Positions 3,553 through 49,966 of a stretch of DNA of 62,094 nt are shown here, in pieces; positions within the stretch are counted from its first letter, which is position 1; every line of letters starts with the position of its first letter. The stretch is from a virus. Taxonomy: Duplodnaviria > Caudoviricetes. The notes beneath the pieces were generated by a model, which was given only the letters and a program-made list of their open reading frames with translations, did not search any database and was not told the DNA's origin. The stretch covers positions 1 through 62,094 of IMG/VR virus record IMGVR_UViG_3300042141_000119, one strand, 5' to 3'. A program made the position numbers and the translations under genes.

Positions 3553-3555
3553 ACG

Positions 3556-6246: not shown

Positions 6247-6254
6247 GACAACGC

Positions 6255-6533
6255 TCAGTTCTTTTGATTTTCGTCTGCGGCAGGGACGCTCGCCGTCGCA
6301 GCACGGCCATCGCCGTCACGCATCGCGTACAGCAGCCGCGTCTGCTCCTGTATGGCGCGCGAGATGTCGTGCTGGGTAGACGCCATCTCCTTGAGGAATG
6401 ACCGATGGGCGTCCACCATAGGGATCACAAGGTCCGTTCGGACGAACCACAGGATTGCCGTTGCGAGAACCAGCCCGAAGCCGTACCGCTCCAGCATCCG
6501 CAACGCCGTCTCGTACACGTCCACGCTGCTCAC
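6255..6533 (-). CDS. Single-TM membrane protein, holin candidate
   Basis: RYGFGLVLATAILWFV hydrophobic segment followed by coiled-coil-like region. Confidence 0.45.
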   Translation of the reverse strand: MSSVDVYETALRMLERYGFGLVLATAILWFVRTDLVIPMVDAHRSFLKEMASTQHDISRAIQEQTRLLYAMRDGDGRAATASVPAADENQKN

Positions 6534-6901
6534 CTCTGCGCTCCGCTTCCACGATTCCATGCTGCCATCTTTACCCTGTTTGCGGGCCGCGAGAGCCACC
6601 ACTGCAAGACAAGCTGGCAGATCGCAGACACCGCAGACATCAACACGAATGACCAGAAGAACCCGTACCGCTTTTCCGATCCGCGAACCGACTCGTAGAC
6701 ACGCGACACGCTCGCGGCCACATCGTCAACGGCCCGTTCTTCTTCTGCCGAGCCCCTTCCGCAGGCCAGAAGCCGCTCGACGGGCCACTCCTGCACCGCA
6801 ATCAGCGTCATGTCGTCAATGCGATCCTTCCCGACCAGGCGCACCCTCACCGGAAGCCTGCTGCGGACGTACTCGCACAGTTCTTTCGGGCCTTCGCTCA
6901 C
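6530..6901 (-). CDS. Membrane protein
   Basis: YGFFWSFVLMSAVSAICQLVLQWW hydrophobic segment; overlapping start/stop coupling. Confidence 0.5.
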   Translation of the reverse strand: MSEGPKELCEYVRSRLPVRVRLVGKDRIDDMTLIAVQEWPVERLLACGRGSAEEERAVDDVAASVSRVYESVRGSEKRYGFFWSFVLMSAVSAICQLVLQWWLSRPANRVKMAAWNRGSGAQR

Positions 6902-7176
6902 CACTTCACCTTGTTCGACCAGAATCGTGCAGAAAATATTGAAGGATCGGAGTCTTGGGCGTTGTGGCGCGCGTAGTAGCTGCGGCGGCGGGCCCTTTCG
7001 GCGTCCGTCTTTGGCGCACTGCCAGCGCCCTCCACGCCCTGCTGACCAAACCGTATCAGCCGCTCCTCGCCGCCACTGCACGCCTTGACAACGTGCGACT
7101 TGGTGTCGTGCGACGGCGTCTTTCTCGGGCTGTTGCACTCTAGCTCTGACTTGAGCGAGCGAATCCTATCGGACAT
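6898..7176 (-). CDS. Conserved small basic phage protein
   Basis: KSHVVKAC...IRFGQQG...RRSYYARH...SARFWS..KW; GGGAGG RBS. Confidence 0.65.
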   Translation of the reverse strand: MSDRIRSLKSELECNSPRKTPSHDTKSHVVKACSGGEERLIRFGQQGVEGAGSAPKTDAERARRRSYYARHNAQDSDPSIFSARFWSNKVKW

Positions 7177-7414
7177 GGCACCTCCCGTCGGCGCAGGTGC
7201 CACTAAGCGTCACCTTCGGTCGGTTCTTGGCGCACGGGCAGGAGGGCGGGCAACTGCACGGGTATCGGTGCAGCCTGTCGCCTGACCACACCATGCCGCT
7301 GCCACCACACTCCGCACAGCACTTGCTCGCGGGTTGCGGCGAGGGCTGCGGCGCAGACGGAGAGCCCGCAAACGCGAGCCACACGGCAACTACGGCAACA
7401 GAGATGCTCACCAT
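7166..7414 (-). CDS. Small secreted Cys-rich protein
   Basis: Hydrophobic N-terminus, CCAECGGSG...CSCPPSCPC. Confidence 0.5.
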   Translation of the reverse strand: MVSISVAVVAVWLAFAGSPSAPQPSPQPASKCCAECGGSGMVWSGDRLHRYPCSCPPSCPCAKNRPKVTLSGTCADGRCHVR

Positions 7415-8352
7415 AGCACCTCCTTCGCTCCCCAGTCTCTTAGCTCTCGCTTTGGAAAGCCGTTGACGTTTGAGACGGCATACGTTCCGCCAGCGTCGAT
7501 CATTCGCTGGGCCACCGACTGCGAAATCCAAAAGGAGCCGTCTGGCTGATCGTGAACTTTCGGGCCAGAAACCCACGAAAAACCCCATGAGTTTTGGACG
7601 CAAAACCGGCAGTCTCCCTTTCGCGTGTCGTCCGAAGCCGTCCACTGCATCGCATGGGCCCAAGAGCCCTTCGGGAACAGCATCCCCTCAGAGTTGCGTG
7701 CGGAGTTGAACCCAACACCCGAGCAGCACACGAGCCCATACCCGGAGGCGATGCAGTCCCTCGCCTGCTGCCATGTCGTGACGAGGGAAATCGTGCCGAT
7801 CCTGTGCTTTGCGGCTTCCGCCGTCACCTTTGCCGGGACTCCGCGCCCGCCCCAGTTGATGCCGATGCTCGCGTTGTACTTTGAGAGGTCTAGCCCAAGT
7901 TCGGCGTAGGGCTTTCGGAGCATCAAGCCTCCCGTCTTGTGCGCCCAGCCGACGATTTCGGAGCAGCTTGCGCCTTGCCCGCTGTGCCCTCGAGCGCCGT
8001 ACAGCGGCTCAGTGGCAGTCCGGTCCACCCAGTCCTCTGTGGTGTGGATGTCCGGGTCATTGGCCCTCGCTTGGTCGGCCGATCCGCGAACCGCCATCGA
8101 GACGCAGTCGCCTGTGGTCTGAACCTCGTCGTATGGCACCCGCCCGGCCGCTTTCTCAAACGCCACGACGGCCTTGAACGGCAGGCACAGCCTTCCTTCG
8201 CCCGCGCCCGACAGCGTGTCGCCGAAGAGCGGCATGGGGAGCGACGACAGCAGCCGCTCGGTTGCCTCTGGGTCGCAAAAAGCACCAACGAGCCCATGCT
8301 CGTAGGCTTCGACAATCTCAGAAGGTGAGGCGAACAGATCGCTCATCGCCAC
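7408..8352 (-). CDS. Papain-like (C1 family) cysteine protease
   Basis: Q..GDCVS (Gln/Cys), WAHAM (His), QNSWG (Asn), GSFWI. Confidence 0.75.
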   Translation of the reverse strand: MAMSDLFASPSEIVEAYEHGLVGAFCDPEATERLLSSLPMPLFGDTLSGAGEGRLCLPFKAVVAFEKAAGRVPYDEVQTTGDCVSMAVRGSADQARANDPDIHTTEDWVDRTATEPLYGARGHSGQGASCSEIVGWAHKTGGLMLRKPYAELGLDLSKYNASIGINWGGRGVPAKVTAEAAKHRIGTISLVTTWQQARDCIASGYGLVCCSGVGFNSARNSEGMLFPKGSWAHAMQWTASDDTRKGDCRFCVQNSWGFSWVSGPKVHDQPDGSFWISQSVAQRMIDAGGTYAVSNVNGFPKRELRDWGAKEVLW

Positions 8353-8354
8353 AC

Positions 8355-8771
8355 CTAACGCACGCTAGAGAACGCCTTCGCAGCAGCCTGACGCGACTCT
8401 GCGGTCAACTGCGAATCTGTCTTCCCAATCGCCTCAAGGAGGTAGGCGTCGAGCTTGTCGCCAAGACCGACGTACTTGCCAACCATTCCTGTGTGGGCGA
8501 ACGCCATTTGCAGGGCAGACTTGTACCGATCCCGCAGGCCGAAGGTCGTCTTGCACACCGGATCGGGAGACAGGCCGTCACGCACAACGATGTCCGCCAT
8601 CGCAGCGTGAAAGTCACGCAGCAGCTTGGCGTCCGCAGCGGTAACCCCAGCCAGGATTGCGGACGGCACTATGACCGGGACGGCCACAGGCTGGCGTACC
8701 GCACCGGCGACGCCAAGCATGGCGGCGGACAGGGCGACCAGAAGCCCGGCTGTGATGATGCCCACCCTCAT
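8355..8771 (-). CDS. Hypothetical protein with N-terminal signal/TM
   Basis: ORF track; hydrophobic N-terminus; gene coupling. Confidence 0.55.
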   Translation of the reverse strand: MRVGIITAGLLVALSAAMLGVAGAVRQPVAVPVIVPSAILAGVTAADAKLLRDFHAAMADIVVRDGLSPDPVCKTTFGLRDRYKSALQMAFAHTGMVGKYVGLGDKLDAYLLEAIGKTDSQLTAESRQAAAKAFSSVR

Positions 8772-9007
8772 CTGCCGCCCTTTCTCACGGGATTCACAAG
8801 GGCGTCCATGAGGGCCCTAGCGGCGGCGGCGACCGGCTGCTCGCCGGATGCCTCAGCGTCCGCCGCAAGCGCGAACAGTCGATTGACCCACCACGCCCTG
8901 CGAGACGGTGAAATGCCGGATGGCCGCGAGAACTTCGGCAGGTACGGGTACGCTGCGGCGACGCCGGAAGCCAGCAGCGCAACGGCGGCGACGATAGCGG
9001 CCGTCAT
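8768..9007 (-). CDS. Small membrane protein
   Basis: ORF track; ATGA overlaps on both sides. Confidence 0.55.
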   Translation of the reverse strand: MTAAIVAAVALLASGVAAAYPYLPKFSRPSGISPSRRAWWVNRLFALAADAEASGEQPVAAAARALMDALVNPVRKGGR

Positions 9008-9282
9008 TCTGGAACCTCCGTCAGGCTGACGGCAGTCGCCAGTTTCACGATGTAGTCCACCAACTCGCGACCGGCCTGCGACATCAGCACCGCTTGAATC
9101 CGCTCCAGCAGATCGTCGTCAATGTGCGTCCCGGTCTTGGAAGCGACGAACCGCATGAGTTTGAGCGCCGCGTCGATCCGCTCTTGAGCGGTTTGCGCGC
9201 CGGATATTTCGGACACAATCGACAACGCGGGTGCCCATTCCACCAGCTGCCGAATCTTGTCCCCTACCGTGACGACTGCCAT
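9004..9282 (-). CDS. Hypothetical protein
   Basis: ORF track; GGAG RBS; coupled to the next gene. Confidence 0.6.
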   Translation of the reverse strand: MAVVTVGDKIRQLVEWAPALSIVSEISGAQTAQERIDAALKLMRFVASKTGTHIDDDLLERIQAVLMSQAGRELVDYIVKLATAVSLTEVPE

Positions 9283-9664
9283 TGGGTTTTCTCTCCGTCA
9301 GCCTGGAAACGTGCCTGACTAGGAGATTTATGTCCGGGCGGGGGCGGGCCCGTGACACTATTTTTCGCCGCACCAAACACTCCGAAATGCCTATATCCCG
9401 GCAGGTCTGCTCGAACGAGAAGTCGCCGCCGCTGCCGTGAAACACCCACCTGTACGCCGCCACCTGCCTCCTGAGCGTCTCGGCCGCACGGTAGCCGGTC
9501 TTGTAGACAAGGTCATGGCCCTCCCGCCTGTGCGCACGGCACAGGTCGATGATGTGGCCGTAGGAGCGAACAACCACCTCTATGCAGAATCGCCTCCACC
9601 CCTCCTCGCAGGACTCGGCAATGTTCTGGTCGTCGTACTCCGGCGGGTCGGGGAGGGCAATCAT
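9119..9664 (-). CDS. Hypothetical protein (possible DNA-binding/regulator)
   Basis: ATGA coupling at 9661-9664; W.F....DFSFEQTCRDIGI motif. Confidence 0.5.
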   Translation of the reverse strand: MIALPDPPEYDDQNIAESCEEGWRRFCIEVVVRSYGHIIDLCRAHRREGHDLVYKTGYRAAETLRRQVAAYRWVFHGSGGDFSFEQTCRDIGISECLVRRKIVSRARPRPDINLLVRHVSRLTERKPNGSRHGRGQDSAAGGMGTRVVDCVRNIRRANRSRADRRGAQTHAVRRFQDRDAH

Positions 9665-10020
9665 TTCGTCGGTGCCTCGCAGAATCCGGCTCGCAGCTTT
9701 CCTTCGTTCAGTTCGGGCCACACTTCGAGAGAATGGATCGCGCCCATCACGTTCCACGCCGCATGACCCAGATGGTCTTCGTCACGGTTGCCGGATAGGA
9801 ACAGGTACAGGTGCCGTAGGGCATGGTTGAGAAGGTCGTTCGCGGGCATCCCCTTCTCCCAGTTGAAGTCGCCGTATTTCCTCGCGCCCTCAGCACAGGC
9901 GGCCGCAACGGCCGCGAGGCCGATTGGGCTGATGAGGTCGTACCTCAGCGACTCGGCGTCCGAAGACCGCACGGCCCCAGACGAGTAGCGAACAGAATCC
10001 TCAGCAATCGTCTTTATCAT
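9661..10020 (-). CDS. dATP/dGTP diphosphohydrolase-domain protein (DUF5664-like)
   Basis: SGAVR, RYDLISP, GARKYG..NWEKG, RH, EDHLGHAAWN. Confidence 0.8.
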   Translation of the reverse strand: MIKTIAEDSVRYSSGAVRSSDAESLRYDLISPIGLAAVAAACAEGARKYGDFNWEKGMPANDLLNHALRHLYLFLSGNRDEDHLGHAAWNVMGAIHSLEVWPELNEGKLRAGFCEAPTK

Positions 10021-10532
10021 TTCTTCACCTCAAGGAAACGCGACTGAAACAACTCCTTCGCCTGCTGCCAGCCCAGCGGCGACGGCGAGCCGCCAACCGC
10101 TTCGGCCTCGATGCCCCAGTCGTGCTGGACCGACAACAGAAATTGCTTCTCCCAAATCAATGCCCGATTGTCCGCCGCCTTCACCGACGGCGGCGCGGGC
10201 CACCGCAGGCCGAACGCGCTGGCGATAACCTGCTGAATCCGCTTTTCCAGAGCGACGTACTCCGGGAGCATCGCCTTGAGCGGCCGGGCGACATCGCCCA
10301 AATACGCCTCGCTGGCATCGTGAAGCAGGCCCCACAGCGCATCCTCCTGCGGCACCAGCTTCGACACCACGACGCTGTGCTGGGCGACCGAGTACGGCTG
10401 CGTGGTGTGCCCCGTAAATCGGTTGAGCATCGACAGCGCGTGCGAGATGTCTGGCAGGCGCACATCGGCCTCGCTGAACTCGCTGAGGTCGATCAGCTTC
10501 CCGGTGTGTGTCTGCATCGTCGTTGCGTTCAT
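10017..10532 (-). CDS. HD-domain phosphohydrolase (YfbR/YfdR-like)
   Basis: DISHALS..NRF.GH..YSVAQHS...GLLHDASEAYLGD. Confidence 0.85.
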   Translation of the reverse strand: MNATTMQTHTGKLIDLSEFSEADVRLPDISHALSMLNRFTGHTTQPYSVAQHSVVVSKLVPQEDALWGLLHDASEAYLGDVARPLKAMLPEYVALEKRIQQVIASAFGLRWPAPPSVKAADNRALIWEKQFLLSVQHDWGIEAEAVGGSPSPLGWQQAKELFQSRFLEVKK

Positions 10533-11065
10533 GCCACCTCCTCTTGCTCGCCGCACACAAGCGGCCCTATCGCCGACAGCTTCGCCTTCGGGACGAAATA
10601 CGCCTCGCCATATCCGCCGTAGTTCCGCCGGAAGCGTGCGTCCTTAGCGTCCCTTCCTCGCATCCATCCATGAACCAAAAAGTCGTTTGGTCCGCCGGTC
10701 ACCAGAACGAAGATGTCGCCGTCCGCATCGTCGTCACGCACCAGCAAGTCATAGTCGTGCTGGGACCGCGTCCGCACTTGAATCGCACCGACGTCGCCGC
10801 CGGTCTTGAACGTGTTCACAGAGCCAGACCAGTAGCGCCCGGTCGCCTTTGCGAACGCGCACTCACCCAGAGCGCCGAGAATGTGAACGTGCCACTCGCT
10901 GTCTCTTGTTGGTCGCGAGTTTTCCAGTCCTTTTCTTAGCGCCTCGACGTTTCGACTTACGCCGACGAGAGCCGCTCGGCTCACCTCGAACCACTCCAGC
11001 CGCACCCGTATCGGGCCGCTTGTAGCGAATCCATCCGTCGTCGTCTGGGATTGGCGAGCCTTCAT
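10529..11065 (-). CDS. Hypothetical protein, possible PD-(D/E)XK fold
   Basis: GALGECAFAK...GGDV..IQVRT; start uncertain. Confidence 0.55.
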   Translation of the reverse strand: MKARQSQTTTDGFATSGPIRVRLEWFEVSRAALVGVSRNVEALRKGLENSRPTRDSEWHVHILGALGECAFAKATGRYWSGSVNTFKTGGDVGAIQVRTRSQHDYDLLVRDDDADGDIFVLVTGGPNDFLVHGWMRGRDAKDARFRRNYGGYGEAYFVPKAKLSAIGPLVCGEQEEVA

Positions 11066-11105
11066 CTTCTTCCTCGTCTTCCAGCGGCCCAAAGTCCTTT
11101 GGCAT
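10863..11105 (-). CDS. Small acidic-then-basic protein (MPKDFGPLEDEEE...)
   Basis: TGATG coupling with upstream gene; overlaps the next ORF. Confidence 0.35.
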   Translation of the reverse strand: MPKDFGPLEDEEEDEGSPIPDDDGWIRYKRPDTGAAGVVRGEPSGSRRRKSKRRGAKKRTGKLATNKRQRVARSHSRRSG

Positions 11106-11806
11106 CACTGTGCATCCATGACTTGAGAAACGAACGTCGCAATCTGCTCCAGCGGGAAAGTCACCAGCCACTCCGACTCGTTGCGCCTGTGCAAGACCAC
11201 AGGGACGAGCGAGCCACACTGCTCACGCGCCTTTTCCATGACGGCCGTCAGGTTCAACGCCTGACACCGCTTGACCTCGAGCCAGAGGTTCGGAGTGCCA
11301 GGAGCTATGAGGTCGCTCGCGCTCTCCGTACCGGAGTGCTGCTGGCTGCGTCGTGCGTGCGCTCGCGGGACAAGCCGGTTCCACACGGCCGCCGCCTCCA
11401 ACTCACCGCGCTTGCCCTTCTGCCTGCTGTTGATTGCCATTTTCTCTAACTCCTGCGGGATGCCGTTCCGTCGTCGCCACTCAAGGACGTAGGGCGGAAA
11501 GCCATCCGGCCCATAGCCGAGATGGCGCTTGCGGCGAAGCGACGCCAAAAACTCCGGGTCGTAATTACCGTCATCGCACTCTCGCTTTGCGGTAAGGCAC
11601 TGGGCCTTCGTGAGGTTGTTCCGTCCGCCGAAATGCAGGCCGTCGTGGCACCACACGCAAAGCCGAAGCAACGCCCGGCGGTCGTGGACCCTTCCGGCTC
11701 CCTGCTGGAGGTGGTGGATGTGCAGTGCTTCCGTTCTGCTCCAGCACACCGCGCAGAACTGCATCTGCTCCGCGAAGGCCGATAGTTCTTCACGCCCATC
11801 GCTCAC
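11105..11806 (-). CDS. Zn/HNH-like domain fused to Holliday-junction-resolvase-like nuclease
   Basis: CxxC..HH...LC..CH N-terminal half; SRQKGKRGELE...SDL...LEVKR C-terminal half. Confidence 0.7.
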   Translation of the reverse strand: MSDGREELSAFAEQMQFCAVCWSRTEALHIHHLQQGAGRVHDRRALLRLCVWCHDGLHFGGRNNLTKAQCLTAKRECDDGNYDPEFLASLRRKRHLGYGPDGFPPYVLEWRRRNGIPQELEKMAINSRQKGKRGELEAAAVWNRLVPRAHARRSQQHSGTESASDLIAPGTPNLWLEVKRCQALNLTAVMEKAREQCGSLVPVVLHRRNESEWLVTFPLEQIATFVSQVMDAQ

Positions 11807-12105
11807 TCTGCCTCCCTGTGGACTGCCTCCACGATGCCAGCCACAGCACGCGAAAAGTTCTTCGCGTCCTCGACCGTCCCGAACTCAATCGACCACTTCA
11901 CAGTCGGGTGGCAGAAGCCCTCCGTCGCAACGCCATGCTCTCGGACTTCCTCGACCCAGTTGTCCTTGCACGCAGCAAGCCCGGCGACGATCCTGGCGTT
12001 GGCGATAATCTCCTCGTTCTCAAGCAAGAACCCGCTCAACGCCTTAGCAAGAAATCCACTCATAACCAGCGCTCCTTTGAAAAGGTTCGACACCTCAGCC
12101 TCCAT
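11803..12105 (-). CDS. Hypothetical protein
   Basis: ORF track; coupled genes. Confidence 0.5.
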   Translation of the reverse strand: MEAEVSNLFKGALVMSGFLAKALSGFLLENEEIIANARIVAGLAACKDNWVEEVREHGVATEGFCHPTVKWSIEFGTVEDAKNFSRAVAGIVEAVHREAE

Positions 12106-12370
12106 GCGTTTTCAGCCAGTTCGCCGCCGTCGCAAACCAGAACGACAGCAGGGTCAGGTCTTCCGCACTCGTGACGTTCACTGTTCCGTCCGTCGCTATC
12201 GCAACGCACGACTTGCTCGGCTCCTCCATCCACTCGGCCGCCTCAGGGTCGTCGCCAATGATCGCGTGCATAACGCCCATGCCCTCCATCGGCCTGCACA
12301 ACGCGGCCAGCTTCGCCCCGTTCGATCCCGTGTATTTCAGCAGCACCAAGTCTTTCGCCATCGCCGTCAC
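12095..12370 (-). CDS. Hypothetical protein
   Basis: ORF track; coupled genes. Confidence 0.5.
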   Translation of the reverse strand: MTAMAKDLVLLKYTGSNGAKLAALCRPMEGMGVMHAIIGDDPEAAEWMEEPSKSCVAIATDGTVNVTSAEDLTLLSFWFATAANWLKTHGG

Positions 12371-12641
12371 CCTGTTCGCGCACCGCTTCCGTGCTGAGAA
12401 GGCCGCGCTGGCCTGCGTCAGCTACCCCGTCATGGGGTTGCGGTGTCAGCCTTATTTGGCCTTCTCCTCAGCAATCCACCGGGACGTAGCGGCTTGGGCC
12501 TGCGACGGCTTGCAGCAGGATCGACTACCTGCCCGTTGCCCGGATTTCGCGCTGACACCACACGGCCGCTCGATCAAGTTCAGAGCGGGTTCTTTAGGCT
12601 CGACCGTTTTGATTTCTTGAGCGCTGACCGATACGAGGAAA

Positions 12642-13037
12642 TCAACAGCGCTGTGTTTTGATTTTTCGGAGTACGGAGAAGTCGCCCCATTTGGCGACCG
12701 AAGACCAGTACAGCCACCGGCTGCCGTTCGTCGCGGCGACAGGGACGCACCCAACGACGCCCGTCCGAGTGTTGACGAGGACGAACGCATCGACATGGGT
12801 TGGGCAGTAGGGTTCGTTTCGTGCCCGGCCACGCCGCAGGCGAACTCGCCTGCCGTGATGGCCGGAAGCTGCCGACGCCTTGACTTGAATCCGCCAGTGC
12901 TTTCGGCCGGAGAACGCGAGAAGGTCGTAGCCGTCGTCCACCAGAGGGACGGCGACTGCGTACCCGGAGCGCAGCAGCCTCTCGACTGCCACAGCGACTC
13001 CGATTTCTCCGACGACCCGGCCATCCGTAGCCTCCAT
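12642..13037 (-). CDS. PD-(D/E)XK endonuclease
   Basis: GEIG...GYAV..P..DDGYDL...RIQVKAS...Y....DAF; GGAGG RBS. Confidence 0.7.
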   Translation of the reverse strand: MEATDGRVVGEIGVAVAVERLLRSGYAVAVPLVDDGYDLLAFSGRKHWRIQVKASAASGHHGRRVRLRRGRARNEPYCPTHVDAFVLVNTRTGVVGCVPVAATNGSRWLYWSSVAKWGDFSVLRKIKTQRC

Positions 13038-13052
13038 GCGTCTGACCTCCGG

Positions 13053-14642
13053 TCAGGACTGCGGCTTCTCCGACTCACGCCTGCTCAACTCACGACGAAC
13101 CGCCGCCTTGAACGGGGAGTCCTTCTTCTGCGACTCCATCACCCACGACAGGTAGCCGTCTGGGATGGAGCGGAGCGGCTGGCCTCGATACTTGCCGTAC
13201 ATCATTCGCCAGCCCCGCTCCTTCTTGCCTTCGGGCTTGGCGAAGGGGTCGCGAGTCTCGTGGTCGAACGTCACGCCGACGAGCAGCGACTTGCGCTTCT
13301 CAAGAAGCTCCTGTGCCTGTCTCTCAAGAGCCTCCAGTTCCGCCGAGTCGGCCTCGCGGATGGCCTCCATCGGGTCGCAGCCGTCCATCGACAGGGCGGC
13401 GGCGAGGCGCTCACGGCGAGTCGGTGACTTCCGCAGCTTGGCGTCGAGAACGTCGAACACCGTCAGCAGCTGCTGGTTGCGGAGATTTCCTGTCAGGTCG
13501 TAGTAGCAGAAGTGCGGCTTTCCGCTGGCGGCGATTGCGGCACGACGCTCGTCGCGGCTCATCTCCGGGTGCAGCGTGCCACCCAATGCACGAGTGCCTC
13601 TGCCGATTCGCTGCTCCAGCCGCGAAAGGCTCTTGGTCGGCGCTGCCGAATAGATGTTTCGGAGTTCTGGAAAGTCCCAGCCGAAGCCAAGAATCCCGAC
13701 GTTGACGATGATCTTCCGCTCGCCGCTGATGAAGGCGTCCATGTTCGCCTTCCGCTCGTCTGCCCGCTGCTTCGAGTAGACGACGCTGGCTGCGACACCG
13801 TACCGAGAAAACACCTCCACAAGCAGCTTGGCCTGCCGGATGGAGTGGGCGTAGACGACGCTCGGTTGCTGCTGGAACGTCGAGAGAACGAGCGACGTTA
13901 CCTCCTGAGCGCAATGCTCTGCGGACAGGATGTCGCTGAGTTGCTTGCGGTCCCACTCGCCAGCCACCTCGTCCACCAGCGTCAGGTCGATGCTCTTGGA
14001 CTCGCTCAGGAAGCACTTGGGCGGGACCAGCCATGCGTCATCCAAAGCCTGCCGCAGCGTGTAGACCGACTGCGGGCGAGGGAAGTACCGCAGCCCCCTG
14101 CCCTTGCCCTTGTACGGCGTGGCAGAGAAGCCCACGACGGTCGCACCAAGCGACTCAAAGTGGCAGAGCATCCGCTCCATCGAAGCGGTCATCTTGTAGT
14201 GGCACTCGTCCACGCAGACCAGCGACACGCGGTCGTAGGCGCGGGCCTTGTAGCGGTCGTTGGAGAGCAGGCTGTCACGCGACCCGACGATCACGCGGCT
14301 CCGAATCCCCTCGATCCACTCTGCCCGGCTCCCTTGATGCTCAACGTCGCACCGCTCTCCCAGCCGAAGCTCCAGGCGGTCCCGGCCCTGACGCATGAGG
14401 TCGATCAGCGGAACGATGAAAAGCGGGTGCTTCGCGATGCGGCACAGTTCCGCGACAACTTCGGTCTTGCCGGTGCCCACCGGCTGGCAGACCGTGATCC
14501 GTCGCTCGCCGTTCCGCGCCGCACGGCAAACGTCCTCTACGGCCTGTAGCTGGTAATCCCGGAGGAACTGCCGCCTATCGGCCCGCTCGACCTGCCGGGA
14601 AACCCTGTCGGCACCAACGCACTCTGGGCAGTCGCTAGTCAT
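13053..14642 (-). CDS. Superfamily 2 (DEAD/DEAH-like) helicase
   Basis: LRDYQ, GTGKT, DECH, SATP, QRIGRGTR; C-terminal GKYRGQPL..IP..YL.W domain. Confidence 0.9.
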   Translation of the reverse strand: MTSDCPECVGADRVSRQVERADRRQFLRDYQLQAVEDVCRAARNGERRITVCQPVGTGKTEVVAELCRIAKHPLFIVPLIDLMRQGRDRLELRLGERCDVEHQGSRAEWIEGIRSRVIVGSRDSLLSNDRYKARAYDRVSLVCVDECHYKMTASMERMLCHFESLGATVVGFSATPYKGKGRGLRYFPRPQSVYTLRQALDDAWLVPPKCFLSESKSIDLTLVDEVAGEWDRKQLSDILSAEHCAQEVTSLVLSTFQQQPSVVYAHSIRQAKLLVEVFSRYGVAASVVYSKQRADERKANMDAFISGERKIIVNVGILGFGWDFPELRNIYSAAPTKSLSRLEQRIGRGTRALGGTLHPEMSRDERRAAIAASGKPHFCYYDLTGNLRNQQLLTVFDVLDAKLRKSPTRRERLAAALSMDGCDPMEAIREADSAELEALERQAQELLEKRKSLLVGVTFDHETRDPFAKPEGKKERGWRMMYGKYRGQPLRSIPDGYLSWVMESQKKDSPFKAAVRRELSRRESEKPQS

Positions 14643-14944
14643 TTCGACCTCGCCTTCTTCTTGCGTGCCTTGCGGACCTTCTTGGCTGGCTTGACGAGAG
14701 GCTCCCTGTCGCCGCCTCGCCAGCGGCTGCTGCAAATCGTGGCCTCGCAAGGCTTGGGCTCCGCAGGCACAGCGATTTGCAGCGCCGCCTCGAACTTCTC
14801 ATTGACCCGAGACAGCACCTCTAGCTCCGCGAGGAGTTGCGGCACTGCGCTGGCGCAGAACGCAATCGCGTTCTCTGCGTCCAGCTTCTGCTGAACAGCA
14901 GCAATCGAAATCAGTCGTGCGTAGGCGATGAGTTTTTCGTGCAT
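14639..14944 (-). CDS. Hypothetical protein
   Basis: ORF track; coupled to helicase. Confidence 0.55.
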   Translation of the reverse strand: MHEKLIAYARLISIAAVQQKLDAENAIAFCASAVPQLLAELEVLSRVNEKFEAALQIAVPAEPKPCEATICSSRWRGGDREPLVKPAKKVRKARKKKARSK

Positions 14945-15020
14945 TGGTAAAAATGCCGGGTGATCTGATCGCCGCCCGGCGCGACGCTGAGGAAACGCTC
15001 AGACCTGCGTGTGTTGTGGA

Positions 15021-15698
15021 TCAAGCCAGCGCTGGCTGACGCTCCTTCTTGGCGGACTCTTTTGCGTCCAGTTCCGCCGCCACCTTCTCGATCCGCTCCG
15101 CAGATGCGGGCGGCAGCATCCCTTCGGCAACGCCCTTCTTCGCACGCTCGACTTCGGCCTTCCTGCCAGCCGCATCCTTCGCGGCCCGAACCTTCGCCAG
15201 GAGCGCCTGCTCGATGCGTGCCTCGTCGTTTGCTGCGGCGACCGCCATTGAGCGGCCAGCCATCTCGCCGTCGTCGTCGTCGTCGGCAGCGATGCCAACG
15301 GCCGCACACAGGGCAACCCGCTTGAGGTAGGTCGCCGTCTTGGCGAACTCCTGCGGCGGGATGTTCCCCTTCATGGGCAGATAGGACCGCTCGAATTGCC
15401 CGCTGGAGTGCCCGATGGTCGTGACAAGCATCACGCCACCGTCGTCCTTGAACGGGTGAAAGGTCTGCCGGATGGACAGGCCGTGCTTCCCGTAGACGGC
15501 CCTCACCGTGTCGAACACGGTCGCGAGGTCCGCGTAGTCAGGCAGGAGCTTGCCCGTTTCGCGGTCCTTCTTGGCCCAGTTGGAAAAGCAAGTTCGCGGA
15601 GCGTTGCGAAGCTCGCCGAAAGCCTTGCCCATAGCGGCGTAAAGCTCATCGACGGCCTCGCTGCGCTCGTTCCAAATGCTCGTAGAAATCGCAGACAT
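15021..15698 (-). CDS. ERF-family single-strand annealing protein
   Basis: YADL, HGLS..Q, HSSGQF, TYLKR..L.A..GIA.DDDDDG. Confidence 0.85.
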   Translation of the reverse strand: MSAISTSIWNERSEAVDELYAAMGKAFGELRNAPRTCFSNWAKKDRETGKLLPDYADLATVFDTVRAVYGKHGLSIRQTFHPFKDDGGVMLVTTIGHSSGQFERSYLPMKGNIPPQEFAKTATYLKRVALCAAVGIAADDDDDGEMAGRSMAVAAANDEARIEQALLAKVRAAKDAAGRKAEVERAKKGVAEGMLPPASAERIEKVAAELDAKESAKKERQPALA

Positions 15699-16774
15699 CA
15701 GACTCTCCTCAGTGCATGGGCCGGAAACGGAAGCTCAACCACCTCGCCGTGTGACTCCGGCAACCACCAGTCGAGGCTTTCACGAAGACGAAGATCAGCG
15801 AGGGCGCGGACCATCTGCTCGCGACCCTGCTCAACGACCTGCTCTGGCAGCGTCACGACTTGAACGTCGTGCGGCAGCGAGGTCGAAATGACGATGTAGT
15901 GGATCGGCCGTTCGAGGAGGCCGCAGGCTTCCATCCCGGCGCGATACCACGCCTCAGAGAAGCCGTAGCGGAAGTCAAGCGCTGACTTCCAGAAGTTCGC
16001 GAGGATGTCGGCCTCGCGAGTCGTCTTGAGGTCTACGACGATGCCGTCGCTCGTCAAGGCGTCGAAGCGGCAGCGAAGCAGGTGGCCGTCTGCCGTTTCC
16101 CAGCGGACGGAGAGTTCCCTCTCCACGATCCGCGACATCAGTTCGCGTGCAGCAGGGTGCCGCCTGATCGCCTCTGCCTCCAGCCGAAGCTGGCGGGCGA
16201 GCTTTGGCGACACGACTGTCGCGTCCGGGCCAGCCTCGTTTTTGGCCCACTCAAGGGCACTTTTGCCAACCTGCCCTGTCGGTGTTAGCTTGTCTTCTGG
16301 AGGGACCGCCAGCGAGTCAAGGAAGGCATCGCCCTGCTCGAACCACGAGTGGAGCAGCGAGCCATGCTCTAAGGCATCGCTGCTCTGCTGGGGGATCGTG
16401 CGGGCGACGTAGCGGCCGTAGTACAGGGCTGTCGAGTCAAGAAACGTCTTGACCGGCGAGCAGTTCCTGTACGAATCATCACTGTGATAATCGGCGTTGC
16501 TCTCTCCACGCCGAACATCCGCAACCGCAGGCCCAGCCGAAACGATCTGAGGAAAAAGAGAAGGGTGGCTGACGGGACTCGAACCCGCGACCCCTAGAAT
16601 CACAATCTGGGGGTCGCTCGCTTGGTAGACGGTGCCGTCGGTAGCGGACTCGACGCTTGTGCGAGGGGCTGCCGATGCGGTGCCGCCAAAAGGGTGGTTG
16701 AGCCCCGCCGAAGCCACAGGAAAAAAGTCTTCCCGCTTCTTTGAATCGACAAGCTGTGCCTCACGCACTGCCAT
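15698..16774 (-). CDS. RecE/exonuclease VIII-like PD-(D/E)XK protein (DUF3799-like); start uncertain (GTG ~16603, ATG 16774 or 16795)
   Basis: SNADYH, GSLLH, ELSV.W, RCRFD, VDLKTT, Y....WY; adjacent to ERF. Confidence 0.8.
   Translation of the reverse strand: MAVREAQLVDSKKREDFFPVASAGLNHPFGGTASAAPRTSVESATDGTVYQASDPQIVILGVAGSSPVSHPSLFPQIVSAGPAVADVRRGESNADYHSDDSYRNCSPVKTFLDSTALYYGRYVARTIPQQSSDALEHGSLLHSWFEQGDAFLDSLAVPPEDKLTPTGQVGKSALEWAKNEAGPDATVVSPKLARQLRLEAEAIRRHPAARELMSRIVERELSVRWETADGHLLRCRFDALTSDGIVVDLKTTREADILANFWKSALDFRYGFSEAWYRAGMEACGLLERPIHYIVISTSLPHDVQVVTLPEQVVEQGREQMVRALADLRLRESLDWWLPESHGEVVELPFPAHALRRV
16562..16610 (-). other. 3' half of tRNA-His(GTG): candidate attP core
   Basis: Minus strand reads CCAGATTGTGATTCTAGGGGTCGCGGGTTCGAGTCCCGTCAGCCACCC (anticodon loop, T-arm GGTTCGA, acceptor 3' strand); no 5' half; next to tyrosine recombinase. 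Confidence 0.75.
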
Positions 16775-17585
16775 GATGCCCGACCTCCATGCCATCGCTT
16801 CGCGTTACTGCGAAGAACACATCCTTGCGTCCGACTACGCGGCAACTCTATTGCGTACCGCTAAGAATTGTCAACGGTTTACAAGCGTCAACCACTTCCT
16901 TCGTCATCGACTCTCGGCGGTCAAGCCGATCACGGTGAAGAACGACAGGGCGATGCTGCTGATCCTCATGCGGTACGCCTACGAGAACGGAATCGTGGAC
17001 GAGTACCCTCGCGGCGTCGCCTCCATCAAGGCACCGAAAGCGCCGACGAAAGCATGGACTTTAGCCGAGTGCTGTACAGCTGTCAACCAAGCCAAAAAAC
17101 TGCGAGGGGGGCGTTTTCGGAATGGCGCAGACAAGGGGGAGTTCTTGGAATGTTGGATTCGGCTGGGCTACGCGACGGGGGCACGCTACGGCGACATAAT
17201 GGCGTTTCACAAGCGGCATTTCGCAGGAAATAGGCTGTACTACGCGCAGGGAAAGACCGGCAACGCTATTTCCGCAGTGCTTGACGAGAACGTCATGCGG
17301 TGCGTCCGCTCGATGCTGTCGCAAAGCCCTGACGGCCGTGTTCTTGGGTGGGTGTGCCAGAAGCGCTGGGCCATGCGGCTGATGAAAAAGCTGCTTGCCG
17401 AGTGCGGCCTGGACGGCAGCAGTAAATGGCTGCGTCGGTCTGCCGCGACTCACGTTGAAATGAAGCAGCGGGGGGCGGCGAGGCTGTTTCTCGGCCACAA
17501 GACCGCCGGGCTTGCCGACAAGTTCTACGTTGACTGGGGGCAGGTCGGCTCGGACTTTCCGCCGCCGCCGCCGCTAGTCGAATAG
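16773..17585 (+). CDS. Tyrosine recombinase/integrase
   Basis: TGARYGD (Arg), QGKTG (Lys), KWLRRS (box II variant), LGH, KFY (Tyr). Confidence 0.85.
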   Translation: MMPDLHAIASRYCEEHILASDYAATLLRTAKNCQRFTSVNHFLRHRLSAVKPITVKNDRAMLLILMRYAYENGIVDEYPRGVASIKAPKAPTKAWTLAECCTAVNQAKKLRGGRFRNGADKGEFLECWIRLGYATGARYGDIMAFHKRHFAGNRLYYAQGKTGNAISAVLDENVMRCVRSMLSQSPDGRVLGWVCQKRWAMRLMKKLLAECGLDGSSKWLRRSAATHVEMKQRGAARLFLGHKTAGLADKFYVDWGQVGSDFPPPPPLVE

Positions 17586-45860: not shown

Positions 45861-46226
45861 CTACTCCATGCGAGGGTGAAACGGTTTCCCGTGACCGGAC
45901 CAGCCGTTCTTCGACCGCAGGTACTCGTCCCGCAGGCTGCGTATCCGGTCGGCTGTCGGCTCTGGCGTAACGACGATGGCGTTCTCTGCCTCAGGCCACG
46001 CTGGCTTCTGGAGGCGTCTGAGGGCTCCCTCGCCAAGCACGGCTGCGTTGTTCAGCAGGCTCCCGCCGCCACGAGACACATCCACGAACGGGAGCGTGAC
46101 GCCCGTGAGCGACTTGACGGCCCCCTCGATGCTCGGGACTTCTGACTTGGCGATAATCGCCCCGTCAAACGAGTTGTCTTCCCGGCCGATGAAGTTCTTG
46201 CCCATGAAGTCCCTCAAAGGATTCAT
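45861..46226 (-). CDS. Hypothetical protein
   Basis: ORF track. Confidence 0.5.
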   Translation of the reverse strand: MNPLRDFMGKNFIGREDNSFDGAIIAKSEVPSIEGAVKSLTGVTLPFVDVSRGGGSLLNNAAVLGEGALRRLQKPAWPEAENAIVVTPEPTADRIRSLRDEYLRSKNGWSGHGKPFHPRME

Positions 46227-46241
46227 GGACGGGAGCGGGCA

Positions 46242-46385
46242 TTATCGGGCAAGCAGGTAAAGGCCGATATTCGACAGGGCGTAGCCGAAATACGCGATTG
46301 CCATGCCGTGATTGCCCCGCCATAGCTGCTCGGCGGAAACGTAGGCGTAGATGAGGCCCGTCAGGCCGATAAGCCATCCGCTCAT
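46242..46385 (-). CDS. Small membrane protein (MSGWLIGLTGLIYAYVSAEQ...)
   Basis: Manual translation, 47 aa, two hydrophobic stretches; ATGA coupling. Confidence 0.65.
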   Translation of the reverse strand: MSGWLIGLTGLIYAYVSAEQLWRGNHGMAIAYFGYALSNIGLYLLAR

Positions 46386-46798
46386 TTCAGCCTCTCCAGC
46401 AATGCGCGGAGCGTGGCGGCGAGCCGAGTGTCGTGGAATTCGTCGGCAATCGCAGCAGCCCGCTCAATCGCCTCCCGCTCCGCGTCGGTGATCGTCCCTT
46501 CCATCGTCACCGCCACGTTGCCGTCGCATACGGACAGCGTGGCGTCTTGATCTGCGATGCGGCGGATGGCTTCTTTCAGCCGCTCGTTTTCCGCGAGCGT
46601 CGGTCCCGGCTGTCGATAGAGCGGCTCGTAAACCATGCCATCGTAGGCCAACTCCTCTATCACAATCCGAGCGTGCGCCTGCGTGGAGTATGTGCCGATG
46701 CAGTTGCCGTCGGCTTCAAACACTGCCCACGCCACCGGCTGAGAACCAACGGATGCAGGAGACGGCTCTGCACCGTCCTGCGTGTTGTCAGTGTTCAT
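46382..46798 (-). CDS. Cassette-type hypothetical protein 1 (QPVAW...LRALLERL family)
   Basis: Start and AGGAG RBS lie inside attC1. Confidence 0.7.
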   Translation of the reverse strand: MNTDNTQDGAEPSPASVGSQPVAWAVFEADGNCIGTYSTQAHARIVIEELAYDGMVYEPLYRQPGPTLAENERLKEAIRRIADQDATLSVCDGNVAVTMEGTITDAEREAIERAAAIADEFHDTRLAATLRALLERLK

Positions 46799-46829
46799 AG
46801 TTCGCCGCTCCTGATCCTTGTCGTTCTCA
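46740..46829 (+). mobile_element. Integron attC-like site 1
   Basis: R'' TGAGAAC, L'' GATGCAGG, L' CCTGATC, R' GTTCTCA; two extrahelical bases; 90 bp. Confidence 0.85.
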
Positions 46830-47162
46830 GCCTAGCCGTTCCAGCAATCCCCGAAGCGCCACCGCGTCAGCAGCCGCAGCCTTGTCACCAAATAGTCTCG
46901 CGTCCTGCTCTGCCCCCTCCAGCGCCTCCCGAATCGCCGCTCGCTCCGCTGCCGTAAGGGTTGGCGGCGGCGTCATGTAGAGAGGCAGAATGTCCTCGTC
47001 GCTCCTGCCGTTGTGCCTTGCGCTCGCCTCTGCCCACTTTCGCTGGGGATGCACCGACACCGCCCGCGTGCGGCTGCTGACGAGTGCCGGATTGCCGACC
47101 GACCAAGCAACCGGCTGAGAACCACGCGATGCAGCAAACATCTCATTCACCTCGTCACTCAT
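46827..47162 (-). CDS. Cassette-type hypothetical protein 2 (QPVAW...LRGLLERL family)
   Basis: Start in attC2, stop TGA in the R' box of attC1. Confidence 0.7.
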   Translation of the reverse strand: MSDEVNEMFAASRGSQPVAWSVGNPALVSSRTRAVSVHPQRKWAEASARHNGRSDEDILPLYMTPPPTLTAAERAAIREALEGAEQDARLFGDKAAAADAVALRGLLERLG

Positions 47163-47204
47163 GGTTGCTCCTGTGTTCGATGCCGCTGATCGCTGGCGTT
47201 ATGC
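47116..47204 (+). mobile_element. Integron attC-like site 2
   Basis: R'' TGAGAAC, L'' GATGCAGC, L' GCTGATC, R' GTTATGC; 89 bp. Confidence 0.85.
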
Positions 47205-47459
47205 GATTGTCTCGCGGTGGCATGGAATGGTCAGATTCCCGGTTCGTTCGTCAAACGGTAGCGACTCGTCAGGCTGCGACTCGTCTGGCGTCAGCCAGTC
47301 GCCGCAGTGTTCGCAAGCCTCGCCAGATGGCGAGCCGCAATCACGCGATGGCTGGCGGAACTTGACGCCGCATGATTCGCAACTGAAGTACCGCCACCCG
47401 CGCATAACCACGCGATGCAGCGGACCCGCGAGCGTGTCGGTTGGTTTGTTCATGGTCAT
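47199..47459 (-). CDS. Cassette-type zinc-ribbon protein
   Basis: CESC...CEHC; start in attC3, stop TAA in the R' box of attC2. Confidence 0.7.
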   Translation of the reverse strand: MTMNKPTDTLAGPLHRVVMRGWRYFSCESCGVKFRQPSRDCGSPSGEACEHCGDWLTPDESQPDESLPFDERTGNLTIPCHRETIA

Positions 47460-47491
47460 AGGTCGCGGGCCGCTGATCGCTGGCGTTCTCA
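47402..47491 (+). mobile_element. Integron attC-like site 3
   Basis: R'' GCATAAC, L'' GATGCAGC, GG(A)CCCGCGA/TCGCGGGCC, L' GCTGATC, R' GTTCTCA; 90 bp. Confidence 0.9.
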
Positions 47492-48406
47492 GCCTAGCCT
47501 CGCCAGCAACGCACGCAGCGTAGCCGCCGCCTGCCTCTGCTCACGAGCGTATCCTCCCAGATCGCCGCGAAGCGGCCCCTCCAGTTGGCGTTCGATTGCG
47601 AACATCCCTGCGACAATCGCCTCGCGTTCATCACTTGTCAGCCGCCCCCATAGCCGCAGGCGTTCGATCTCAACAGCGGCTTCATGGCAGGCCCAGTATT
47701 GATCCTCGTCATCGGTGCCGAGCCAACCGGCGTTCGCCTGACGCAGGCGGCGAATGATACACCGATCCTGTGATGTACCCTCGCCATGTGTAGCGTGCGG
47801 CTCGGGTGTAGATGCGACAGCCTGCGGGCTATCAGTTTCGCTGCCTGCGACAGGCGAAAGTGTATCGCCGGTGCCCTCGCCGGGTCGGGTGGCCGCTTTA
47901 TCAGCGCGGTCCCTGTCGGCGTCTGTACGGGCTTTCGCCGCCGGCGCGGCGTCATGAGTTGTCTCCCACTCTGGACGCACCCTGACGAGCAGCGACCGCA
48001 GGATGCCGTAGTCATCCATGCAGGCGATGCGGCCTTCGACCACAACGTATTCCAGCGCGTCGATCTCGGCTTCGGATAGTCGCGTTCTGGAATCTGGAAT
48101 ACTAAGCCCCTCGCCTTTCGACGGTGGGCCATCTGTCTCCACGCATGGTGGAGCAGTCTGTGTGTTGCCAGTGACCTCACCGCACCGACTAGCCGTACCG
48201 GGATTCTCCAGTTCGGACGCCGCATGAAGCGAGTTTTCGTCGGGGGTGCTGACTATCGCCGCTGGCACGGCGTCATGAGTTGCGGCAGAAACCTCTGCCC
48301 GTTTGTTTTTCGGCATCGGTTCCGTAACAGGCACCGTTTCGCGGCTCTCTGCTGCACCGTTTCGCTCGCGGAGCATGGCGTCGGCGTATTGGTCGCGGTC
48401 AGTCAT
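47489..48406 (-). CDS. Mosaic hypothetical protein with repeated modules
   Basis: THDA.PAA twice, (G/V)TG(D/N)T twice, ends LRALLARLG; stop in the R' box of attC3. Confidence 0.6.
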   Translation of the reverse strand: MTDRDQYADAMLRERNGAAESRETVPVTEPMPKNKRAEVSAATHDAVPAAIVSTPDENSLHAASELENPGTASRCGEVTGNTQTAPPCVETDGPPSKGEGLSIPDSRTRLSEAEIDALEYVVVEGRIACMDDYGILRSLLVRVRPEWETTHDAAPAAKARTDADRDRADKAATRPGEGTGDTLSPVAGSETDSPQAVASTPEPHATHGEGTSQDRCIIRRLRQANAGWLGTDDEDQYWACHEAAVEIERLRLWGRLTSDEREAIVAGMFAIERQLEGPLRGDLGGYAREQRQAAATLRALLARLG

Positions 48407-48573
48407 GATTCGATCTCCGGTATTTCCTGTCTGGGCGACAACCCGCACAGCCCACGCAGGCGGGCGTTCTCGGCCCGCAGACGCTCAATCTCGTTCGCAG
48501 CGGCCTCCGCCAGCGGGTCGCGGAACTTCGACGAGTACGAGCGGTCACGGAGTCGGTCAACGATGTCCGTCAT
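48403..48573 (-). CDS. Small hypothetical protein (MTDIVDRLR...AANEIERLR)
   Basis: Manual translation; ATGA coupling. Confidence 0.6.
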   Translation of the reverse strand: MTDIVDRLRDRSYSSKFRDPLAEAAANEIERLRAENARLRGLCGLSPRQEIPEIES

Positions 48574-48575: not shown

Positions 48576-48836
48576 CTACTCCAAGAAAGACGCTGGCCTC
48601 GCGGGGGGCGTCACAGCCACGACCCCAACAGCCAGCAGAATCCCGGCAACAAACGACACCAGCAGAATGACGGCCACACGCCTCATGCGGGCCATCTCTG
48701 CCTCGAACGCCAAGTCAACCTCCCGGCGCAGCCCCTCGCCGTGAACGGCCCTCAGGAACGCACCAGCGGCCTCCTGCGAGGTGGGCATCCTTTCCCACTC
48801 CGCAGAGGTCTTTGTGTCCGCCTGACGGGCTTCCAT
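48576..48836 (-). CDS. Small membrane protein
   Basis: C-terminal hydrophobic segment; TGATG coupling. Confidence 0.55.
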   Translation of the reverse strand: MEARQADTKTSAEWERMPTSQEAAGAFLRAVHGEGLRREVDLAFEAEMARMRRVAVILLVSFVAGILLAVGVVAVTPPARPASFLE

Positions 48837-49210
48837 CAGAACGGGATTACGTCGTCAACTTCCGACACGCCAGCCGCCACCGGCACGCGGTCCTTCGCAG
48901 CCCACCGCAGGCTCTTGCCAACCTCATCGGCCAGCAGCCGCAGCGACGAGCCCTGAGTGCCGTCCTTCTTCTGGTACGTCTCCAGAGACAGCCTGCCCGT
49001 GACGACCACCCGGTCGCCCTTCTTGAGCGACTGGGAGACAACGTCCGCCTGCTCCTCGAAGCAGGCCACATCCACCCACGTTGTCTGGCCGTCCTGGCCC
49101 TCACGCTTCACGGTCGAGGCGACGGAGAACGAAAGCATCGCCTTCCCGTTCCGGGTGGTGCGAAGCTCGCCAACCTTGCCGACGTTGCCCGTAATTGTGG
49201 CCGAAATCAT
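48836..49210 (-). CDS. ssb: Single-stranded DNA-binding protein
   Basis: ITGNVG...LRTT.NG...FSVA...W....KGDRV.V.GRL; DDVIPF tail. Confidence 0.92.
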   Translation of the reverse strand: MISATITGNVGKVGELRTTRNGKAMLSFSVASTVKREGQDGQTTWVDVACFEEQADVVSQSLKKGDRVVVTGRLSLETYQKKDGTQGSSLRLLADEVGKSLRWAAKDRVPVAAGVSEVDDVIPF

Positions 49211-49261: not shown

Positions 49262-49966
49262 CTACGAATGTGAGTCAACTGTTTTTCGAGGAGGACGGCC
49301 GCGCCGTAACGTGACGCCCTGCTCGCGAAGCAGTCGGCGCGCTGTAGCCACGCAGCAGCCAATCGCAGAGGCTACCTGACAGACGCGCTTGCCTTCGTCG
49401 TGAAGCCTCCTCGCCAATTCGCGACCGGCTTGCTTAGGCCGTCCTCGAACGCCACGACTAATCCGAATTGCCGGAGGGCTACGACGCTCGCCACGCGCCA
49501 CAGCAGCCTCGTGCTCCATGATCTTCCGCTTGGCCTCGCCGTAAGCGGCAGAAGCCTGCTCGACTGTCGAGAACACCCCCAAATACAGAGTTTTATTGCG
49601 GTGACTTATGCAAGCCCCGTATGGGGAAACTCCCGAAAGGCGATTGAGGTAGACGCCCGGCGGAATCGGCTTCGACCGCATCTTTGGCACGGTGCAGTTG
49701 TGGGCGTTCAACGACAGCGTTGTCGCCCGCAGATTGCACAGCCGGTTGTCCGTTCGGTCCCCGTTGATGTGGTCGATATAGCGAGGAACGCTCCCGTCGC
49801 CGTACTCCCATGCCCACACAAGGCGGTGCATCGACACCCACCGCGTCCGCTTGCCATCGCTCCAAGCGTGACGGACGTATCCGCCAGCAGACTTCTGCCA
49901 CGACATCCGCTGCAAGCGGGCCGCGAACTTCTCGTCGTACTTCACCGGCAGGTCTGTGATGTCCAT
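49262..49966 (-). CDS. HNH-AP2 homing endonuclease
   Basis: MHRL...IDHINGDRTDNR..NLR; YLGVF.T.EQA..AY AP2-like; C-terminal HTH. Confidence 0.8.
   Translation of the reverse strand: MDITDLPVKYDEKFAARLQRMSWQKSAGGYVRHAWSDGKRTRWVSMHRLVWAWEYGDGSVPRYIDHINGDRTDNRLCNLRATTLSLNAHNCTVPKMRSKPIPPGVYLNRLSGVSPYGACISHRNKTLYLGVFSTVEQASAAYGEAKRKIMEHEAAVARGERRSPPAIRISRGVRGRPKQAGRELARRLHDEGKRVCQVASAIGCCVATARRLLREQGVTLRRGRPPRKTVDSHS

Follow-up and report, generated by a model that had tools for sequence, protein, structure and literature searches.

An array of antisense integron cassettes with start codons inside its attC sites in the genome of an uncultured lake-water phage

The attC sites of integron cassettes are recombined by the integron integrase IntI as folded bottom strands, and their two spacers are canonically 5 and 6 nt long. 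Clusters of attC sites without an integron integrase (CALINs) are defined by at least two attC sites with no intI nearby (Cury et al. 2016, PMC4889954), and the same paper names Planctomycetota among integron carriers and, in the legend of its Fig. 2, names the parts of an attC site, namely the R and L boxes, the unpaired central spacers (UCS), the extrahelical bases (EHB), plus a variable terminal structure (VTS). CALINs are already known from phages: Qi, Rajabal, Ghaly, Tetu and Gillings (2023, PMC9892861) reported 17 of them in 10,705 phage isolate genomes, and 5 of the 6 phage attC sites tested recombined with IntI1. Here we describe an array of three attC sites in the window, by which we mean the whole 62,094-bp stretch analyzed, a complete IMG/VR virus record of a lake-water phage with direct terminal repeats (IMGVR_UViG_3300042141_000119). 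The locus had been picked out by a model from the letters of the sequence and a list of its open reading frames (ORFs), and we refer to that reading as the original prediction.

Like the phage CALINs of PMC9892861, the arrays described here have orphan DNA methyltransferases among their cassette genes, and they fit the idea, raised there, of phages tapping the integron system. They differ in that a single attC family is spread over 114 uncultured viral contigs, with arrays of well over ten sites, and in that the genes lie systematically on the bottom strand with a ribosome-binding site (RBS) and ATG inside the attC site. The main text of that paper describes cassette orientation as typical or divergent, and the words "antisense" and "opposite" are absent from it. 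As far as the literature searched goes, the mirrored layout with the start codon in the attC site is new; we found no description there of antisense phage cassettes starting inside attC, and data on cassette orientation may be present in tables S1-S4 of Qi et al.

We read the array as a CALIN of mirror-image cassettes in a probably temperate phage with a Planctomycetota-like host, on which host IntI would act in trans, and we put the probability of this reading at roughly three in four.

Three attC sites and their antisense cassettes

Three attC sites lie within 760 nt on the + strand of the window: attC1 at 46737-46832, attC2 at 47113-47204 and attC3 at 47402-47494. They were scored with two covariance models, R1, which is based on an alignment of 122 distinct sites of the family described below, and R2, which was built from 25 IntI-adjacent sites only, all from metagenome-assembled genomes (MAGs) of Planctomycetota. 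R1 finds only these three sites in the window, at 84.8, 71.6 and 88.9 bits for attC1, attC2 and attC3. R2 finds exactly the same three on the + strand, at 44.6 (E 3.3e-08), 45.1 and 70.8 bits (E 2.6e-14), and its next match has 13 bits (E 0.76). A covariance-model search was a check proposed in the original prediction, and it held with these two models; the R2 matches fix both membership of the attC family and polarity, with + as the top strand. A possible fourth site was not significant with either model (45890-45991, R1 E 1.1; 45961-45991, R2 E 6.8). The bare pattern of GATGCAG, 30-60 nt and CTGATC occurs three times in the window against 0.03 expected, and none of 100 shuffles contained at least three.

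In each site an R″ box with AAC as its last bases is followed by a 5-nt spacer and GATGCAG; a loop of ~50 nt then leads to CTGATC, a 6-nt spacer and GTT. This layout of ends, spacers and L boxes, given in the original prediction, was confirmed at all three sites. In attC1 the left arm consists of R″ GGCTGAGAAC (46737-46746, with AAC at 46744-46746), the spacer at 46747-46751 and GATGCAG at 46752-46758, and the right arm consists of CTGATC at 46811-46816, the spacer at 46817-46822 and GTT at 46823-46825, with GTTCTCAGCC as R′. attC2 has AAC at 47120-47122, GATGCAG at 47128-47134, CTGATC at 47186-47191 and GTT at 47198-47200, its R″ being GGCTGAGAAC and its R′ GTTATGC. In attC3, R″ is GCATAAC (47402-47408), followed by GATGCAG at 47414-47420, CTGATC at 47473-47478 and GTT at 47485-47487, with GTTCTCAGCC as R′. 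A bulged G lies within L″ at 46755, 47131 and 47417, and a bulged A lies seven bases beyond it at 46762, 47138 and 47424. Both extra bases had been predicted, and both are unpaired columns between covarying pairs in the 122-site alignment, where the G is invariant by the search pattern itself.

The loop of attC1 contains the RBS and ATG of a - strand ORF, and the stem of attC2 has two mismatched pairs, beside its bulged A. When the strands were folded in place, as the original prediction had suggested, attC1 alone folded end to end (DNA fold z -3.58, both strands), whereas attC2 (z +1.12) and attC3 (z -1.19) folded no better than shuffles. This is as expected, because the R boxes of attC2 and attC3 belong to different cassettes.

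The claim that each R″ complements the R′ of the previous site, the signature of a cassette circle, is true for both cassettes in the window in which it can be tested. The R″ of attC3 (GCATAAC) complements GTTATGC at 47198 and not its own R′, and the R″ of attC2 complements GTTCTCAGCC at 46823, the R′ flank of attC1. Cassette 2 (46824-47198, +, 375 nt) accordingly begins with TTCTCAGCC and has as its own R″ the complement of TTCTCAGCC, and cassette 3 (47199-47485, +, 287 nt) begins with TTATGC, of which its own R″ GCATAAC is the complement. A first unit at 46386-46823 (+) ends at the G of the attC1 GTT, and on its left side it borders directly on the start codon of a conserved 47-aa gene. These sites thus combine palindromic AAC/GTT ends, extrahelical bases with asymmetric spacers, recognition by covariance models and chimeric R″ boxes, all of which are marks of attC sites.

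A canonical cassette holds a promoterless top-strand ORF followed by attC, whereas all three ORFs here are on the bottom strand and start inside an attC site. ORF1 (46382-46798, -, 138 aa) has its ATG inside attC1 with AGGAG 9 nt upstream, ORF2 (46827-47162, -, 111 aa) has its ATG inside attC2 with AGGAG 5 nt upstream, and ORF3 (47199-47459, -, 86 aa), which encodes a Cys-rich small protein, has its ATG inside attC3. The stops of ORF2 (TCA, 46827-46829) and ORF3 (TTA, 47199-47201) each fall in the R′ box that opens their own cassette. An identical 16-nt R″-L″ arm is translated in different frames in ORF2 and ORF3, and therefore its conservation is at the nucleotide level. The strand, start signals and stops of the ORFs agree with the original prediction, whose structural reading of self-contained antisense translation units between G/TT cut points was right in every point tested.

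We propose that, like those of bacterial integrons, each cassette is a circularizable unit that would be cut at the G/TT of the R′ box. Its construction, however, is mirror-image. The gene lies on the bottom, recombinogenic strand, with the Shine-Dalgarno sequence and ATG in the attC loop, the first ~15 codons supplied by the L″-R″ arm and the stop codon in the R′ half-site opening the same cassette. With start signals in the loop and the stop in the opening half-site, each cassette would bring its own translation signals and plug into the minus-strand operon. The reversed orientation may also set the phage cassette pool apart from the sense cassettes of the host. Genes that run against the array are familiar from the inverted toxin-antitoxin cassettes of Vibrio chromosomal integrons, which are a minority of cassettes there and have their own promoters. 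Those inverted cassettes differ from the present ones in that they are not known to form a whole array with start codons inside attC sites.

The site family in phages and beside integron integrases

For the family search we used a 24-base degenerate pattern derived from the three window sites, which matched 114 IMG/VR contigs and 19 genome contigs, 9 of the latter with Planctomycetota lineages in their titles. In the 122-site alignment, stem pairs beyond the L box covary (pair 30-88, for example, is CG in 44, AU in 35, GC in 28 and UA in 10 sites and unpaired in 4), and 82.4% of cells are paired, compared with 71.3% after shuffling and at most 44.9% with the partner slid. Among the fetched loci R1 gave 453 matches, including single-contig arrays of well over ten sites, and AAC and GTT are in register in 438 of 450 family members. 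Short forms of 57-64 nt with almost no loop (57 nt, 42; 64 nt, 24; among the 450) alternate with long forms in phage arrays L020, L058, L037, L044 and others, and the genes next to them mostly start just outside. The idea that translation runs through those attC sites which lack an internal ATG, and so fuses domains across cassettes, was rejected; the bottom-strand frame was open across the site and at least 150 nt on either side in 47 of 309 cases, compared with 67 of 309 in the top-strand control, so there is no enrichment. In Logan contigs of four lake metagenomes, summed depth over 47114-47566, which covers attC2 and attC3, was ~1,000-2,700 in three runs, with flanks at 3-50, and therefore the attC family is abundant in those lakes well beyond one phage.

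The same family stands beside bacterial IntI genes. Three of the five MAGs with a pattern match have IntI genes over the TIGR02249 cut-off (359-449 bits versus 265), one ORF being confirmed at 431 bits, and R1 matches flank these genes in the canonical divergent layout. At L152, IntI is at 9162-10865 (+) with 13 R1 matches on the - strand at 404-8129, and at L153 it is at 8478-9425 (-) with 14 R1 matches on the + strand at 10529-17531. Loci L148, L149 and L150 have the same layout, and in L148 one pattern match lies ~450 nt from an IntI. We sampled 61 genomes of the family to which the Planctomycetaceae MAG belongs, and R1 had matches in 34 of them, with as many as 43 in one genome. Runs of model matches over tens of kilobases (G080:C1:231571-313798, G095:C6 and G105:C1) look like very large chromosomal integrons. 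A 2.9-Mb contig holds about ten attC sites at L127 (G001:C4:688001-696000), and the genome's over-cut-off IntI matches lie on other contigs; this array may be a chromosomal CALIN.

These sedentary chromosomal integrons of Planctomycetota (MAGs G001, G003 and G004) share with the phage arrays the AAC/GTT ends, the 5- and 6-nt spacers, the bulged G and A and the circle signature. They differ in having IntI alongside and in a median cassette of 592 nt compared with 363 nt in phages, and no RBS-ATG module is visible by eye in the loops of their IntI-adjacent sites. They also differ in gene orientation. Beside IntI, the longest ORF of a cassette runs in sense in 26 of 27 cases, but in viral contigs it is antisense in 186 of 249. 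Of these 249 viral cassettes, 214 contain an ORF on the bottom strand whose start lies in or next to the cassette's own attC and which spans at least 60% of the remainder; in 156 of them the start is inside attC. The stop usually lies in the R′ box: relative to the previous G, its last base is at +4 in 71 viral cassettes, at +9 in 42 and at +1 in 36. The 16-nt arm is read in one of two frames (122 and 24 cassettes, respectively), and copies of the identical arm are found in both frames. The antisense frames contain real genes, in that 119 cluster representatives include C5, N6/N4, MT-A70 and Dam-type DNA methyltransferases, HNH, DUF551 and crAss001_48-like proteins (best E 2.5e-45).

The circle signature holds across the family. 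Over 275 unique neighboring pairs, the mean complementary run of R″ is 4.6 nt with the previous R′, 1.73 nt with its own R′, 1.8 nt in the wrong direction and 1.68 nt at random. When only the 224 informative pairs, in which the R′ flanks differ, are considered, the previous site is favored in 201, the own site in 7, and 16 are ties. As a positive control, the IntI-adjacent arrays gave 4.38 versus 0.5 nt, with 21 of 24 pairs fitting and none reversed. In addition, each attC moves together with its left-hand gene. The inner attC is shared by 41% of the pairs that are homologous in the left flank only (141 pairs), compared with 5.8% of those homologous in the right flank only (446 pairs) and a background of 6.4%. 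From this difference we conclude that the exchange point is on the GTT side, as in integrons.

Variable gene content and the enzyme that may act

The original prediction had proposed that related phages would show cassettes gained or lost at the GTT points. Two syntenic phages, L087 and L056, are ~80% identical over the capsid region and 81% identical over a conserved membrane-like 47-aa gene (46242-46385, -), which forms the left edge of the variable locus, and homology among the window, L087 and L056 ends directly after the CAT at 46383-46385. At this same locus they carry 2 and 4 sites, compared with 3 in the window, and their gene bodies differ, with only the attC parts in common. A third relative, L093, has attC2, cassette 3 and attC3 at 93% identity, and the likeness stops at the GTTCT of attC3, where the right-hand neighbor differs. 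Thus variable site number and gene content at one locus were found, whereas the left edge of that locus has no GTT junction.

The simplest reading of which enzyme acts would be host IntI in trans, the host-supplied integron integrase cutting and joining the folded sites, for example during lysogeny or the SOS response. In a complete integron the array is accompanied by intI, attI and a Pc promoter; here there is no IntI and no GTT junction at the left edge. The window has three attC sites and no PF00589 match in its 62-kb genome, and a search of 49 long viral records with arrays, of which 24 are at least 90% complete, found no IntI over the cut-off. The window nonetheless encodes a tyrosine recombinase, of phage type and not IntI, since the ORF at 16632-17585 (+), ~29 kb from the array, matches PHROG integrase families (phrog_1 E 3.8e-11); it has no Pfam or NCBIfam match and no BLAST similarity to a MAG IntI. 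The PF00589 blank is therefore a sensitivity miss and not an absence, and the claim that the phage has no IntI stands, with this integrase probably a bystander. This divergent ORF adjoins the recombination module of ERF and PDDEXK genes.

Several points weigh against host IntI acting on mirror-image cassettes in this phage. IntI-mediated insertion of cassettes at non-att genomic sites (attG), described in bacterial chromosomes (Loot et al., bioRxiv 10.1101/2022.09.11.507474), is a possible entry route for the first cassette into a phage genome without attI, but no GTT, attI-like or attG-type junction was found at the left end of the array in the window. At the other end, the 319-aa ORF right of attC3 has no attC of its own. 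A crude test gave a longer sense ORF in 63 of the 249 viral cassettes, and the training sites of R2 were first located with the phage-derived R1. In the 61 sampled host-family genomes no R1 match rose above 75 bits, which is the level at which the phage types score, and for this reason the Planctomycetota-like host is only probable. With left-flank linkage at only 41%, and one attC type occurring on unrelated genes, some process beyond simple G/TT exchange must also spread attC types. No recombination product was observed, and the circle junctions proposed as a check, 47485->47199 and 47198->46824, did not turn up among the joints listed, whose sides are mostly <30 nt, in a search of Logan contigs from four runs of four studies at 90% likeness, the uncovered parts of which are uninformative; contigs had loose ends at the attC edges 46822/46823, 47201, 47406 and 47489. 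The phrog_1 integrase is present in 37 of the 49 array-bearing viral records and 20 of the 24 near-complete ones, and therefore another tyrosine recombinase is usually at hand; the same count indicates that most of these phages are probably temperate, as is probably the phage in the window. Finally, the window encodes ERF and a PDDEXK exonuclease, which could recombine 80-nt repeats.

These last genes bear on the explanation that survives best besides host IntI, one we nevertheless regard as unlikely, in which the sites are fossil attC sites, brought into phage genomes once by an integrase and now kept as portable translation-initiation modules and RNA hairpins. In place of site-specific cutting, they would be shuffled by homologous recombination at the ~80-nt repeats through the phage's own ERF (15021-15698) and exonuclease (15698-16795). 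The inner attC parts of unrelated genes and phages are 85-100% alike, which together with the partial left-flank linkage would suit this explanation, and homologous exchange within attC would keep a circle signature already in place. It cannot, however, create the complementarity between R″ and the previous R′ that is seen in 201 of 224 pairs. Moreover, neither the two bulged bases nor the asymmetric 5/6-nt spacers have a role in an mRNA start region, and yet they are kept while the stems covary, and they are also kept in IntI-adjacent sites. The 57-64-nt forms are still kept in arrays although they lack a start codon.

It is less probable still that the phage's own non-IntI tyrosine integrase, instead of host IntI, recombines the hairpin sites. 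The PHROG matches of ORF 16632-17585 and the frequency of phrog_1 among array-bearing records would favor this, but many integrases are expected in any set of temperate phages. Four of the 24 near-complete array-bearing records have no such integrase, including a 204-kb genome with terminal repeats; where checked, the integrase is 12-45 kb from the array and has no likeness to IntI, and the sites are of the family found beside bacterial IntI. A reading of the sites as inverted repeats arisen by chance, or as ordinary intergenic terminators or translational-coupling hairpins between paralogues, might be suggested by ORF1, ORF2 and the 319-aa ORF being paralogues whose shared N- and C-terminal motifs overlap the R boxes, but this is already contradicted by the pattern count (three versus 0.03 expected), the circle signature, the R2 matches (model E values of 1e-8 to 1e-14) and the arm that ORF3, unrelated to ORF1 and ORF2, uses in another frame, and attC2 and attC3, without an end-to-end fold in place, would be poor hairpins.

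Cassette proteins, phage genome and significance

ORF2 belongs to the largest family of cassette proteins (54 of 222 clustered proteins). ORF1 has a PVAW motif and a C-terminal TDAEREAI...LRALLERL domain resembling that family, and the 319-aa ORF (47489-48448, -), which stops within the R′ box of attC3, shares its C-terminal motif with ORF1 and ORF2; both ORF1 and the 319-aa ORF were outside the 222 clustered proteins and are linked to the family by these shared motifs. No Pfam or PHROG match was found for ORF1, ORF2, ORF3 or the 319-aa ORF. An AlphaFold2 model of ORF1 (pLDDT 81.9, pTM 0.38) had no PDB fold match at E<=0.001. Atlas look-alikes, which we treat as leads only, reach at most 0.88 for ORF1 and 0.92 for ORF3, the latter with one named family (DUF7836, rank 7) among the matches listed.

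The 319-aa ORF looks mosaic. Its segment 47863-47965 is 91% identical to L017:140-242, directly left of an attC, its segment 47931-48076 matches L027:3555-3700, likewise attC-adjacent, at 89% identity, and a 46-nt direct repeat lies inside it (47916-47961 and 48237-48282). It may represent decayed cassettes fused into a single gene.

Nearly all genes at 2-53 kb of the window are on the - strand. The virion genes include those for the major head protein, the portal and other virion proteins, and the genome also encodes a single-stranded DNA-binding protein (SSB), an HNH endonuclease and a helicase, in addition to the ERF annealing protein and PDDEXK exonuclease. The HNH endonuclease, which has a resolvase-type helix-turn-helix (49262-49966), adjoins the SSB gene (48836-49210). 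ARAGORN found no tRNA genes in the window, and a blastn search of 46200-47700 against 50,697 deposited phage records gave no match.

More speculatively, temperate phages of Planctomycetota-like hosts might keep a parallel, mirror-image cassette economy that runs on host IntI, a picture that we consider possible rather than probable. Under this proposal, the recombinogenic strand of attC would have evolved to carry an RBS, a start codon and a leader peptide, and a captured gene would thereby arrive translation-ready for the phage operon. The bottom strand is the non-template strand here, so transcription would free it to fold and would thereby couple expression to shuffling. The reversed polarity would also make the two pools mutually silent, silencing phage cassettes in host arrays and host cassettes in phages.

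If host IntI does act on these arrays, integron recombination would be a regular engine of accessory-gene turnover in uncultured phages of 30-204 kb and not rare hitch-hiking. An attC site that doubles as a translation start bears on how cassettes with uniform attC sites are born and on how promoter-distant cassettes are expressed. Uncultured phages are linked by their attC type to hosts whose integron matches, and this could serve as a marker for host prediction. Host integrons have been described as stores of defense genes, and the orphan DNA methyltransferases and many unknown small proteins in the phage cassettes would therefore make these arrays a ready-sorted library of candidate anti-defense genes.

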